From a virus, in IMG/VR virus record IMGVR_UViG_3300038856_000064, positions 96,001 to 160,000 of that record: 64,000 nucleotides of DNA; one strand, 5' to 3'. The translations under genes and the position numbers were made by a program. The notes under the pieces were generated by a model, which saw only the letters and a list, made by a program, of their open reading frames with translations, did no database searches and was not told the origin of the DNA. This document shows positions 47,425-51,261 of the stretch, in pieces (within the stretch, counting starts at the first letter, position 1; the number at the start of each line of letters is the position of its first letter).

Positions 47425-47546
47425 TCCGGACATCTAGAGATGCGCGCGGAACACCGCGCCCTCTCGGGCTTGCGGGCGACATATCGGGCGAATATTTGAC
47501 TTCTAAAATTGACTACTAGCAGGTTTTGTGATATCCTTTCACTGAA

Positions 47547-48275: not shown

Positions 48276-48308
48276 AGCCTCGGGGAGAAGGGACCCCTGG
48301 GGCTTTTT
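48276..48308 (+). terminator. Terminator
   Basis: AGCCTCGGGG/CCCCTGGGGCT + T run. Confidence 0.7.
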
Positions 48309-48404
48309 GTGTACAGCGCGACAACTCGCGCTTGCCTCCGACATATCGCGAAAGTATTTGACTGCTAAATTTGACTTCTGGGGAAGTTTGTGATACACTT
48401 AGAT

Positions 48405-48776
48405 ATGGAAAAGCTCACAGCGCAAAACGTCGCGGACATCGCCTATCGCTACTATGCGAATGGTGGAAAATCTGGACACACTCCGGGAGACCGTTCGCCT
48501 GATGGGTGCACGTATTTCCGCTCCGATGGCGGTCGGTGTGCGATCGGTGCGGTACTGGATCACTTGGGGTATACTAAAAAGGATCTGGGCGATCACAATG
48601 AGCTGACTACGGTCTCGATGCTTTTCGACGAACTACCCGGTATCCGCGAAAAATTCAGTTGCGATGTCGAATTTCTGGAAAGTCTCCAGCGAGCGCACGA
48701 CGGATCAGAACGCGACGATGAAATTCCGGAACGAATCCGCTGGACTTGTCGCGATCACGGAGTATACTTGAGATAA
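48405..48776 (+). CDS. Hypothetical phage protein, leaderless
   Basis: TTGACT-N17-TACACT at 48371-48399; CTY...RCAIG...LQRAHD. Confidence 0.7.
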   Translation: MEKLTAQNVADIAYRYYANGGKSGHTPGDRSPDGCTYFRSDGGRCAIGAVLDHLGYTKKDLGDHNELTTVSMLFDELPGIREKFSCDVEFLESLQRAHDGSERDDEIPERIRWTCRDHGVYLR

Positions 48777-48824
48777 CTTCAAAGCACCTAGAGGCGGAAC
48801 TAGGCTAAATCCGCATTTCTTTTA

Positions 48825-48937
48825 GGGGTAGATAGGTTTTTGACATCTAGAATACGGTTTGGATACCAGCCGCGAAAAGCCCAACGCAAAAACGCGGTTT
48901 GTCTAGATGGACCCGAGTTCAATTCTCGGCTACTCCA
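48825..48937 (+). ncRNA. Mini-tmRNA 1 (tRNA-like domain only, 113 nt)
   Basis: Acceptor GGGGUAG/CUACUCC-A with G3.U70; stemless D-loop AUAGGUUUUUGA; helix CAUCUAGA/UCUAGAUG; GAC linker; T-arm CCGAG-UUCAAUU-CUCGG. Confidence 0.85.
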
Positions 48938-48944
48938 TAAATTC

Positions 48945-49047
48945 GTTAGAGCGCGACATATTGGAATAGTAAGGTTCGCACAAACTTACTAGGACAATGG
49001 TGCGGGGCGGTGTGCGCCGCAAGTAGGTTCGATTCCTACCTCTAACA
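48945..49047 (+). ncRNA. tRNA-like RNA with acceptor stem and T-arm but non-tRNA core
   Basis: GUUAGAG/CUCUAAC-A; T-arm GUAGG-UUCGAUU-CCUAC; internal hairpin UAGUAAG/CUUACUA. Confidence 0.75.
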
Positions 49048-49059
49048 TAAATTCGGGAA

Positions 49060-49155
49060 GTGTTGAAATAACGACTAGTGGTACCAACCGCTATGGTGTA
49101 AAGTCTTATAAGGGCTGAGCACACCCGAAACTTCTTACACGTTAGCTGTCAACAC
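49060..49155 (+). ncRNA. Structured RNA element of unknown class
   Basis: Closing stems GUGUUGA/UCAACAC and UAACG/CGUUA enclosing further hairpins. Confidence 0.5.
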
Positions 49156-49163
49156 AATTTGAG

Positions 49164-49215
49164 AGCCCTGACCCGAGTAGCTTAGAAATAGGCTTCTGGA
49201 GTTAGGGCTTTTTTT
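49164..49215 (+). terminator. Terminator of first RNA cluster
   Basis: AGCCCTGAC/GTTAGGGCT + T run. Confidence 0.75.
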
Positions 49216-49362
49216 ATCTGATACACCCGAGCCTCTCGGGCATGCTTCCGACATATCGAGAAAAGGTTTGACTTTCTGACACCTAGATAAGAAGTGAGAG
49301 TATACTTTCAACATGACCGAACACAGGAACTCATCGACGAACTGTGGTGAGTGGAATTCAGC

Positions 49363-49390
49363 TTGACAACTAGAACAACTAGGGTATACT
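49363..49390 (+). promoter_or_regulatory. Sigma70-like promoter for second RNA cluster
   Basis: TTGACA-N16-TATACT; followed by 15-codon ORF MRKIKAPTGRRKRAR (49396-49443). Confidence 0.8.
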
Positions 49391-49480
49391 TCTCCATGCG
49401 AAAGATCAAAGCGCCTACTGGCCGTAGGAAAAGGGCGCGATAACATAAATACCTCCTATGCGGCATACCGGGTTTCCGGT

Positions 49481-49529
49481 ACCCCGACGAAAAGAGTAGC
49501 CAGATATATCGGGGTTTGATAACTCTGGC
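49481..49529 (+). ncRNA. H-type pseudoknot
   Basis: ACCCCGA(49481)/UCGGGGU(49509) interleaved with GCCAGA(49499)/UCUGGC(49524). Confidence 0.55.
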
Positions 49530-49534
49530 AATAA

Positions 49535-49602
49535 GGGAGTGACAGGTTTAGGCAACTAGTGAATACTATGTTGTAACGTGGGTTCGATTCCCACCACTTC
49601 CA
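49535..49602 (+). ncRNA. Mini-tmRNA 2 (tRNA-like domain only, 68 nt)
   Basis: GGGAGUG/CACUUCC-A with G3.U70; D-loop ACAGGUUUAG; helix GCAAC-UAGU/ACUA-U-GUUGU; AAC linker; T-arm GUGGG-UUCGAUU-CCCAC. Confidence 0.85.
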
Positions 49603-49682
49603 TAAAGCCCTAGGTGGACGCAAGTCGCATACTAGGTTGATACTGCCGGTTTGGGTTATACCGGAGGAAGGTTCAACCTAGG

Positions 49683-49731
49683 GTGGTAACCTTGACCGGA
49701 CCAAGCTAGATGGTCAAAATAACCACTTTTT
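49683..49731 (+). terminator. Terminator-like hairpin ending second RNA cluster
   Basis: GTGGT..TTGACC/GGTCAA..ACCAC + TTTTT. Confidence 0.55.
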
Positions 49732-49917
49732 ACCTCAGGTGATACACCCGATCCTCTCTGCCATGCCGCGCGCATATCGCAACTATATCAGACACCTCCT
49801 CCCCTCCTCAAGTATATCGCAACCCTGGAGAAAAGTCAAGTATTATTTTGAGAACATCTAGGTGCTTTTCCACCCTGCTTTTCTTGCCATCTTCGACAAG
49901 TCATGTATACTTAGGGC

Positions 49918-50196
49918 ATGAGCAAGAACAACACGAACATCGGGAAGTTTCTCACCGATCTGGCAAGCAAGGCATCTCCGCTGAACGCGCAAGCTATCGC
50001 GGACTTGCAAGACAAGATGCGCGCAGAGAAGGTAGTGGAATTGGAGCGCAGGATCCGTCACGTTCTGAAATGCATCAACACCGAAGTCACCGAACTGCGT
50101 ACCCTCCGCAAGCGTGAGGCGGAGACCAAAAAGCGCATCAAGGATTTGGAGAAGCTCGCGAACGACATCGTCACCGGAAAGGACATCGACGACTAG
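49918..50196 (+). CDS. Coiled-coil early protein, leaderless
   Basis: TTGCCA-N16-TATACT at 49884-49911; 92 aa. Confidence 0.75.
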   Translation: MSKNNTNIGKFLTDLASKASPLNAQAIADLQDKMRAEKVVELERRIRHVLKCINTEVTELRTLRKREAETKKRIKDLEKLANDIVTGKDIDD

Positions 50197-50198
50197 CC

Positions 50199-50261
50199 TG
50201 TTATACTGACGAGATCCGGGCAAAAGGATCGAAACTAGGCATAGCCTAGTCTATAATGCCT
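50199..50261 (+). ncRNA. Hammerhead ribozyme, type I
   Basis: Stem I UGUUAUA/UAUAAUG, core CUGACGA, stem II GAUCC/GGAUC, GAAA, stem III CUAGGC/GCCUAG, GUC site at 50249-50251. Confidence 0.92.
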
Positions 50262-50398
50262 ATAAAATGGGGGTTTGACCAAGTGCTAAGTGCCAAAATG
50301 GTTGAATCCCGTGCCAGTGACATTATCGTTCAATAGTGTCCAGTGCAAAAGCAGACAACTAGAGTCTCGGGTGCCAGTCACCTGAGGCTCTTTCGTTT
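50252..50398 (+). ncRNA. Putative ribozyme-released small RNA with repeated GUGC motifs
   Basis: Three hairpins, GUGC at 50283, 50290, 50311, 50343, 50371; last hairpin is terminator-like. Confidence 0.55.
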
Positions 50399-50715
50399 AT
50401 ACACCGAAACAACTCGCGCTTGCCTGCCAAACATATTTTATATCAGCGAGACTCGCCCCTCCTAAGTATATCATAAGATAGGGGAATGTCAAGAACAACT
50501 AGAATAAATATTAGCACGATACCCTACCGCGCACGTACGCGCGAATATCACAAGATCCGCAATTTGTCAAGCTCGTAAGAGATATTTTCTCAGAATGATT
50601 TCTAGGTGATTTTGGATCCATTCACTTGCTTTTCGTTCGAACTAGGGTATATTGATTGTGGCTAGCGCAACGGAGCGCATAAGCAAACACAAAACCCGAA
50701 CACGAGGATACAAGA

Positions 50716-51261
50716 ATGGACGAACAGAACATCACCACCGACGACGTCGAAAACTTCGATGTCACCGAACAGAACGACGACAGGCAACGACGCGAGCGGA
50801 GAACGCCAGCTCAGATTATCGCCGATTTGGAAGCCGAGATTGCGGCACGAAAGGCCGCTCTGGACGGCAAGATCGATACGAGTACCGAGCACGGTCTCGG
50901 CAAGGCTCTGCGGAACGCACGACGCAAGCGCAATACCGCGCTGAAGGCCGCACAGGTCATCGTCGAAGGAATCCCCGCCAGCGACGGTAAGGGCTGGACT
51001 CGCAAACCGATGTCCGAGACGATCAAAAACACCGAAAAGCGCTTGGAGTCGCAACGCGAGACTCTGAACCGAGCGGAGTACCAGCGCGCCGATCTGCCGA
51101 CGTGGATCGCTCGCCTGGACTCTCTCCTGGAAGCCCTCGAAAGGGGCGACGACGTCGAATTCCCGCGCGATATGCCGCCCCTCGAAAATGAGAAGGACCG
51201 CTCTGCCGAGGAGCACGAGGCGGCTTTCTACGCGAAGAGTCAGGAAGGCGACGACGCCTGA
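50716..51261 (+). CDS. Charged helical early protein
   Basis: 181 aa, GAGGA RBS, promoter TTGCTT-N16-TATATT at 50626, terminator 51270-51305. Confidence 0.75.
   Translation: MDEQNITTDDVENFDVTEQNDDRQRRERRTPAQIIADLEAEIAARKAALDGKIDTSTEHGLGKALRNARRKRNTALKAAQVIVEGIPASDGKGWTRKPMSETIKNTEKRLESQRETLNRAEYQRADLPTWIARLDSLLEALERGDDVEFPRDMPPLENEKDRSAEEHEAAFYAKSQEGDDA

Follow-up and report, generated by a model that had tools for sequence, protein, structure and literature searches.

A 68-nt element in the genome of a large uncultured phage looks like the tRNA-like domain (TLD) of a tmRNA from which everything else has been removed. It lies in an IMG/VR virus record of 175,148 bp that is estimated to be 82% complete, of which bases 96001-160000 were analyzed here (the window, 64,000 nt; all positions refer to it unless another contig is named). 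A longer mini-tmRNA, which we call copy 1, lies 600 nt upstream of the 68-nt element, copy 2. Is copy 2 a genuine gene or the remnant of one, and what might such a short RNA do for the phage during infection?

Structure and boundaries of copy 2

The preliminary description had placed a TLD without an mRNA-like part at 49535-49602 (+), with helix 2 capped by a short loop. Folding and alignment to the tmRNA model bear out both statements, and fold and coordinates stand as first described (Table 1). The MFE structure is also the centroid, at -23.6 kcal/mol (z = -2.55), and 2 of 200 shuffled sequences folded equally well. The TLD is complete: a 7-bp acceptor stem (G1-C72, G2-C71, G3.U70, A4-U69, G5-C68, U6-A67 and G7-C66), the discriminator A73, a stemless D-loop with GG, a 5-bp T stem and a 7-nt loop of the form UUCRANU. 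The interval between acceptor and T stem is 36 nt, made up of unpaired ACAGGUUUAG and a single hairpin of 9 bp, which has one bulged U, closes with GAAU and reads GCAACUAGU-GAAU-ACUA(U)GUUGU. This short hairpin closes helix 2a in place of an mRNA-like domain. There is no tag ORF, for which the 23-nt hairpin leaves no space, and there are no pseudoknots.

No D stem, 7-nt anticodon loop or cloverleaf could be formed by folding copy 2. In tRNAs and tmRNAs, the GG of the D-loop is paired with the T loop. The D-loop motif GGUUU does not vary among the 10 sequences of the family or among 96 TLD-only RNAs from unrelated phages (the search patterns demanded GGUUU). The mature 5′ end, and with it the RNase P site, would be at 49535. 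An attP site or a tmRNA fragment was considered and rejected for copy 2, as the TLD has both its halves in one uninterrupted stretch.

Table 1. Features of copy 2 and its surroundings, in window positions
Feature	Position	Strand	Remarks
40-nt intergenic repeat D1, one of six	49219..49258	+	Opens the copy 2 cassette; 49740-49779 closes it
Sigma-70-like promoter TTGACA-16-TATACT	49363..49390	+	11/12 consensus; 145 nt upstream of copy 2
Copy 2, acceptor stem 5′ strand GGGAGUG	49535..49541	+	Pairs 7/7 with 49595-49601; aligns to the acceptor columns of Rfam tmRNA and model R1
Copy 2, stemless D-loop analogue with GG	49542..49551	+	Unpaired in MFE fold
Copy 2, helix 2a remnant, 9 bp (G18-U40 to U26-A31), bulged U35, GAAU tetraloop	49552..49574	+	MFE fold
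Copy 2, linker AAC preceding T stem	49575..49577	+	Class consensus GGAC; copy 2 is G-U-AAC (R1 alignment)
Copy 2, T arm GUGGG-UUCGAUU-CCCAC	49578..49594	+	Sequence and fold
Copy 2, acceptor 3′ strand CACUUCC and discriminator A73	49595..49602	+	CCA not encoded; trailer UAAA
Structured 3′ tail, 133 nt, long hairpin	49603..49735	+	MFE -44.5 kcal/mol, z = -2.53
Copy 1, 113-nt mini-tmRNA (TLD, 7-bp helix 2a, two hairpins)	48825-48937	+	CCA not encoded

Model scores and family assignment

The Rfam tmRNA model (RF00023) scores copy 2 at 42.1 bits, with an E-value of 1.1e-14 in a 3.5-kb search and 1.3e-16 genome-wide. The gathering cut-off of this model is 47 bits, and copy 2 was found by E-value reporting. 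Both ends of the model's 374 positions align to the 68 nt, with a single 326-position deletion between them. The TLD of bacterial tmRNA therefore aligns with copy 2 end to end, whereas the 326 absent positions are the resume codon, the tag ORF and PK1-PK4. Copy 2 is not a full tmRNA, since a resume codon, a tag frame with a stop and the pseudoknots are missing and the score lies below 47 bits. Without these mRNA-like parts it cannot support the mRNA step of trans-translation.

A second covariance model, R1, was built from 46 TLD-only RNAs of unrelated phages alone. It gives copy 2 a score of 50.0 bits (E 1.4e-11), copy 1 49.7 bits, the RNA of mycobacteriophage DS6A 56.9 bits, the long forms of this phage lineage 57-62 bits, and the tRNAs of the same phage at most 22.6 bits. 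The tRNA model (RF00005) gives copy 2 23.4 bits, under its 29-bit cut-off. Copy 2 is far beyond a chance match and is confirmed as a genuine phage RNA gene of the CDS-less (TLD-only) mini-tmRNA type; its phage origin is evident from portal and large terminase genes on the same contig. Within the class its R1 score is near the bottom of a range of 45-90 bits. Copy 2 is missed by ARAGORN when run with default settings and by Rfam when its gathering thresholds are applied. At a relaxed threshold, ARAGORN gave a 91-nt call of poor quality in which the acceptor stem is mismatched.

Comparison with known TLD-only RNAs

CDS-less, TLD-only tmRNAs are an already published kind (DS6A; PMC4131195, PMC11915505) and are abundant in phage contigs. 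The interest of copy 2 lies in the pairing of a long and a short paralogue, the internal-deletion route to the short form, and an altered junction. DS6A was listed as a 'TLD only' tmRNA by Hudson, Lau and Williams in 2014 (PMC4131195; tmRNA Website tmID 11587). We place its gene at JN698994 28478-28560, which is unannotated in the record. Its scores are nearly equal to those of copy 2 (43.2 versus 42.1 bits with RF00023, 56.9 versus 50.0 bits with R1). Both RNAs have an acceptor with G3.U70 and A73, a stemless D-loop, a short helix instead of an mRNA-like domain and a T arm, and both are without a tag ORF, pseudoknots and a fully encoded CCA. The DS6A RNA is 80-83 nt long with a two-tier central helix, whereas copy 2 has 68 nt and a single capped helix. 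The junction is GAC on the 5′ side and GCAC on the 3′ side in DS6A, and GGC/UAAC in copy 2. The temperate actinophage DS6A (60 kb) has a single copy, in contrast to the uncultured 175-kb phage with its longer paralogue. Beyond the common fold there is no detectable sequence homology between the two.

CDS-less tmRNAs are also found in organelles, and those of about 65 bp have been reported from the plastids of Mallomonadaceae (PMC11915505). Like copy 2, the organellar forms (jakobid mitochondria, Mallomonadaceae plastids) are about 65 nt and reduced to the TLD (PMC11915505). They are vertical descendants of a full tmRNA and have a dedicated SmpB, whereas copy 2 is viral and its host has a full tmRNA of its own.

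As an independent check, IMG/VR was scanned with a loose D-loop/T-arm/UCCA pattern, which yielded at least 120 loci. A 7/7 acceptor stem beginning with GGG, which the pattern did not demand, is present in 118 of these listed loci. At least 118 of the IMG/VR matches listed are TLD-only genes of 60-86 nt, and they form two size classes, 60-69 and 75-82 nt. The single capped hairpin of copy 2 also occurs in the 60-69-nt class. G3.U70 is present in all 46 aligned TLD-only phage RNAs, and 11 of 17 pairs have compensatory changes.

The junction with helix 2a is where copy 2 departs from the class. By a consensus computed here, which is not a published definition, the junction is GAC on the 5′ side in 98 of 99 members and GGAC on the 3′ side in 75 of 99. 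Copy 2 has GGC, found in 1 of 99, and UAAC, found in none of the 99 (xAAC in 4). A C-G pair and a possible G.A pair are retained at this junction in the RF00023 and R1 alignments. The GGC/UAAC change could weaken SmpB binding. Paired TLD genes are uncommon, with two in only 1 of 100 other loci (L103, IMGVR_UViG_3300017527_000281). There the two TLD-only genes are at 5-81 and 1317-1392, 1.3 kb apart, with a common acceptor stem, different T stems and one non-canonical T loop.

Probable origin of copy 2 in a family of longer mini-tmRNAs

The preliminary description spoke of two TLD-only RNAs. That name suits copy 2. Copy 1 (RF00023 match 48825-48940, 52.2 bits, above the 47-bit cut-off) is not strictly TLD-only and belongs to a ~115-nt family with two extra hairpins. 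Its stems, GGGGUAG/CUACUCC in the acceptor and CCGAG/CUCGG in the T arm, read as first quoted.

The portal protein led to four related contigs, two of which have a tmRNA match. G002 (complete, 176 kb) has one 117-nt mini-tmRNA with an encoded CCA at G002:C1:33307-33423 (72.3 bits), and G003 (an 82-kb fragment) has another, also 117 nt with CCA, at G003:C1:21105-21221 (68.4 bits). Six further metagenome contigs, found with a family-specific pattern (L022-L025, L030 and L031), have one mini-tmRNA each. The orthologues of copy 1 are 114-117 nt long, score 64-74 bits with RF00023 and are single copy in 8 of 8 related contigs. Large uncultured phages of one lineage thus carry members of the ~115-nt family, with its TLD, 7-8-bp helix 2a and two hairpins. 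A search of 50,697 GenBank phages gave no match to 48300-50300 by blastn or to a 584-aa structural protein by tblastn, and judged by these searches the lineage is without a cultured relative.

A tag ORF in the ~115-nt family was considered and rejected: a frame ends at the UAG of helix 2a, but there is no consistent ORF among members. All members keep AAA ACG NNN YUN GYC UAG in one frame, ending in the 3′ strand of helix 2a. In members of the G003 type, a further UAG interrupts this frame six codons before the helix 2a UAG, and the variable codons follow stem covariation.

In the alignment of ten sequences, every acceptor and T-stem pair is formed in all ten, G3.U70 does not vary and double changes occur at 6 of 12 pairs. 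Between copies 1 and 2, 6 of 12 pairs are changed on both sides and none is broken, and all homologues found retain G3.U70 and A73. The earlier claim that the stems differ while pairing, G3.U70 and A73 are kept thus holds. The claim that copy 2 diverged from copy 1 holds in part. The differences are compensatory, but copy 2 is 51% identical to copy 1 and 63-74% identical to the relatives; as the alignment reads, both copies in this phage (G000) diverged from a common ancestor.

Several features tie copy 2 to the longer family. Its T stem (GUGGG/CCCAC) is also that of G002, G003, L022 and L023, while the T stem of copy 1 is found in no other family member. The 5′ strand of helix 2a, CAACUAG, is identical in G002, G003 and L022-L031, and the 5′ half of copy 2 is closer to the ~115-nt family than to any of the 118 other phage TLDs listed. 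These matches suggest that copy 2 is the family's TLD and helix 2a minus the internal hairpins. It is best read as a paralogue of the ~115-nt family in which the ~50-nt two-hairpin insert has been replaced by a GAAU loop. The two forms have a homologous D-loop (GGUUUAG), helix 2a, T arm and G3.U70 acceptor. In copy 2, by contrast, the two internal hairpins (~50 nt) are absent, a U bulges from helix 2a and the junction is altered.

The relatives have the long form only and encode CCA, whereas copy 2 does not. This does not make copy 2 defective. The phage's own 17 listed tRNA genes likewise have no CCA encoded downstream (the acceptor of one ends in CCA by coincidence), and their trailers mostly begin with U. 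A nucleotidyltransferase of the PolyA_pol/CCA type is also encoded by the phage, outside the window (G000:C1:164692-165063, 69.1 bits).

No orthologue of copy 2 was found in G002, in the partial G003, in the six metagenome contigs, or in the IMG/VR and metagenome pattern scans, which makes it a lineage-specific singleton. The family 5′ pattern returned long-form orthologues only from IMG/VR and metagenomes, and no second gene of the copy 2 type. Several other pattern matches were set aside. L002 and L003, exact 5′/3′ matches in IMG/VR, are permuted, bacterial-type tmRNAs unrelated to copy 2. These two-piece genes (L002:4217-4238 and L003:10450-10471) have the same acceptor (GGGAGUG/CACUUCC) and T arm (GUGGG/CCCAC) as copy 2, an identity that is probably host-derived or coincidental. 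Exact-pattern matches L004 and L005 in IMG/VR are chance matches in coding sequence, and L016, L017, L026-L029 and L032-L034 are chance matches of the family 5′ pattern in IMG/VR and metagenomes.

By synteny, 48945-50800 is an expansion in this phage; G003 has ~430 nt there. A 40-nt repeat bounds cassettes at 49219 and 49740, which suggests that the duplication may have come about by recombination between cassette boundaries.

Selection or decay

A singleton in an expanded region might also be a decaying duplicate, that is, a non-functional, internally deleted remnant of the 113-nt mini-tmRNA that is intact through youth alone. Copy 2 has no orthologue in any relative, its junction departs from the class consensus, its model scores are near the bottom of the class, and it lies in the region that is expanded relative to G003, all of which would fit decay. 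We nevertheless consider decay unlikely. Copy 2 is not young, being 49% diverged from copy 1 and 26-37% from the relatives, and still all 21 of 21 stem pairs, G3.U70, A73, the T loop and the GG of the D-loop are intact. It also lies behind a near-consensus promoter in a cassette of its own.

The chance of such preservation was estimated by placing the observed number of substitutions at random in 200,000 trials, starting from the nearest relatives or from copy 1. All 12 acceptor and T-stem pairs survived in 0.08-0.55% of trials from the nearest relatives and in fewer than 0.01% from copy 1, so that neutral change preserved the 12 pairs in less than 0.6% of simulations. Compared with L022, copy 2 has changed at 4 of 24 stem positions and at 14 of 44 other positions. 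These results support the view that the structure of copy 2 has been under selection, and the initial reading of the covariation as selection on structure is upheld by both the alignment and the simulations.

Genomic context

The portal gene and an intein-containing large terminase gene are on the minus strand. Small early genes are densely packed on the plus strand at ~44-63 kb, where copy 2 lies. The promoter at 49363-49390 likely drives the copy 2 transcript. Promoter-like sites in the region number 15, against 3.9 expected. An extended -35 motif, TTGACAWCTAG, would be expected 2.0 times in the window and is present at 16 sites, most of them in the early region on the plus strand; they include 47029, 48034, 48840, 49363, 51789 and 60555, and the one at 49363 belongs to the promoter upstream of copy 2. 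One such site is inside copy 1, at the junction of D-loop and helix 2a, where the mini-tmRNAs of relatives read UCGACAACUAG.

Copy 2 is the only conspicuous product of its cassette. The D1 repeats, which bound small gene cassettes, are on the plus strand at 47447, 48309, 49219, 49740, 50397 and 53147, just upstream of early promoters, and have the motif ACACC..CUC..GCNUGC..CGACAUAUCG. By blastn, the D1 motif also follows the mini-tmRNA in G003. The leader of copy 2 has two candidate leaderless micro-ORFs, 49314-49364 (+) with 16 codons and 49396-49443 (+) with 15 codons. Both begin 5-6 nt past TATACT -10 boxes, and 49396-49443 encodes the very basic MRKIKAPTGRRKRAR. The 3′ tail of copy 2 ends in a terminator-like hairpin at ~49682-49727 followed by five U. 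No homologue of the tail (49603-49735) was found in the relatives.

A third tRNA-like RNA lies between the two mini-tmRNAs at 48945-49047 (+). It has the acceptor GUUAGAG/CUCUAAC, without G3.U70, and the T arm GUAGG-UUCGAUU-CCUAC, with a long rod and a small hairpin in place of the D and anticodon arms; the tRNA model gives it only 15.2 bits. Its last 29 nt, with the trailer AUAAA, are 83% identical to the 3′ end of copy 2. An ARAGORN call of a 'permuted tmRNA' at 48848-49276 (+), with the 23-aa tag AEHTRNFLHVSCQHNLRALTRVA, is a chimera and not a real gene: its 3′ domain is the T arm of copy 1, and its 5′ domain comes from the interior of the third tRNA-like element. Its GGAAUAG pairs 6/7, against 7/7 for copy 1's own GGGGUAG, and the tag is not recognised.

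These neighbors bear on a further alternative, that copy 2 is some other tRNA mimic: a degenerate tRNA-Ala, a decoy for AlaRS or for a host defence nuclease that targets tRNA, or a site for RNase P/Z processing by which the early transcript is punctuated. Copy 2 clusters with a tRNA-like RNA that has no G3.U70 and a closely similar 3′ end and trailer, is followed by a structured tail and obtains 23.4 bits on the tRNA model. Like tRNA-Ala and the alanine minihelix, it has G3.U70, A73 and G2-C71, the AlaRS identity set, and an acceptor/T-arm coaxial stack. It differs from tRNA-Ala in having neither a D stem nor an anticodon arm, and the latter leaves no target for anticodon nucleases. The stemless GGUUU D-loop and the family-homologous helix 2a are specific to tmRNA, the tmRNA and TLD-only models score about twice as high as the tRNA model, and ARAGORN at default settings calls no tRNA. 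Taken together, this makes any such mimic quite improbable.

A candidate type I hammerhead ribozyme was noticed at 50200-50257 (+), directly after the stop codon of ORF 49918-50196. Its core is intact (CUGACGAG, CGAAAC and GUC), and its stems are GUUAUA/UAUAAU (I), GAUCC/GGAUC (II) and CUAGGC/GCCUAG (III). It scores 21.5 bits with RF00163, whose cut-off is 34 (E 0.0042 when 181 nt are searched), and 20.2 bits with RAGATH-1-hammerhead. Pfam searches of ten neighboring small ORFs gave no functional link (WYL_2, SprT-like, GP88; the rest without a match to known function).

Proposed function

G3.U70 and A73 are the established identity rule for AlaRS, and minihelices are known AlaRS substrates. 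The most likely role of copy 2 is that of an alanine-chargeable decoy of host trans-translation. We think it probable, though by a modest measure, that copy 2 is a genuine CDS-less mini-tmRNA gene that was duplicated within the array of early cassettes, lost its insert and now serves as such a decoy. That copy 2 is expressed, processed, charged and bound by SmpB, and that it affects the host, are predictions from its sequence.

Such a decoy would work in four steps. First, copy 2 would be transcribed early from the promoter upstream. Second, RNase P would cut at 49535 and RNase Z or exonucleases would trim after A49602, and either the host or the nucleotidyltransferase of the phage would add CCA. 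Third, host AlaRS would alanylate the RNA through G3.U70 and A73. For the AlaRS core (PF01411) the phage search gave only a sub-threshold match of 11.6 bits, to which we attach no meaning. Fourth, copy 2 would bind host SmpB and EF-Tu in competition with host tmRNA. No phage SmpB (PF01668) was found in G000, G002 or G003, so copy 2 would have to use that of the host. Having no resume codon, it could not complete trans-translation and would serve as a decoy, dampening both trans-translation and ssrA tagging in the infected host, as reported for the DS6A form.

The precedent for this function is one published E. coli experiment with a similar molecule, as related in PMC4131195 and PMC11915505. 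The tmRNA database paper of 2025 states for E. coli that endogenous tmRNA is inhibited by the DS6A form (PMC11915505). In the accounts given there, which follow Mao et al. 2009, a TLD-only molecule strongly inhibits tmRNA, perhaps by titrating SmpB (PMC4131195, PMC11915505).

Copy 2 might instead rescue ribosomes without tagging. An alanylated TLD would enter stalled ribosomes with SmpB and accept the nascent chain, and a hydrolase, which could be Pth, ArfB or a phage RF-1-domain protein, would resolve the complex. Phage proteins would escape ssrA tagging while ribosomes are freed. The features for charging and EF-Tu binding are complete in copy 2, and the phage encodes a GGQ-type RF-1-domain protein (G000:C1:3841-4158, outside the window, 91.3 bits). 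The CDS-less mitochondrial and plastid tmRNAs are conserved and found together with SmpB (PMC11915505), and a comparable helping role is supposed for such organellar RNAs. Against this, nothing links the RF-1-domain gene, ~141 kb away on the contig, to copy 2, and the published test of a TLD-only molecule, as related in PMC4131195, reported inhibition and not rescue. A rescuer and an inhibitor are inseparable by sequence alone. We regard rescue as a doubtful role for copy 2, and an inhibitory decoy as the better reading.

More speculatively, the two mini-tmRNAs and the third tRNA-like RNA may be an early decoy set with divided labor, in which, for example, the 113-nt form and the 68-nt form, whose junction is altered on the SmpB side, act on different host factors, be it SmpB and AlaRS or EF-Tu, or the SmpBs of two hosts. 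Or the 68-nt RNA, the phage RF-1-domain protein and the CCA-adding enzyme may make up a self-contained tag-free rescue system. Proposals of this kind have little likelihood at present.

Significance

Copy 2 is a further example of a class of phage RNAs that standard annotation (ARAGORN, and Rfam at its cut-offs) misses. It also offers, within one lineage, a natural route by which internal deletion would turn a ~115-nt mini-tmRNA into a TLD-only RNA of 68 nt. Since this route is found within one lineage, the short class may have arisen repeatedly. A long and a short form with different stems and an altered junction in one genome make a natural pair that is well suited to testing what a TLD needs for SmpB binding and for the inhibition or hijacking of trans-translation. 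Finally, the locus adds to the evidence that the early regions of large phages hold clusters of RNA mimics directed at translation.
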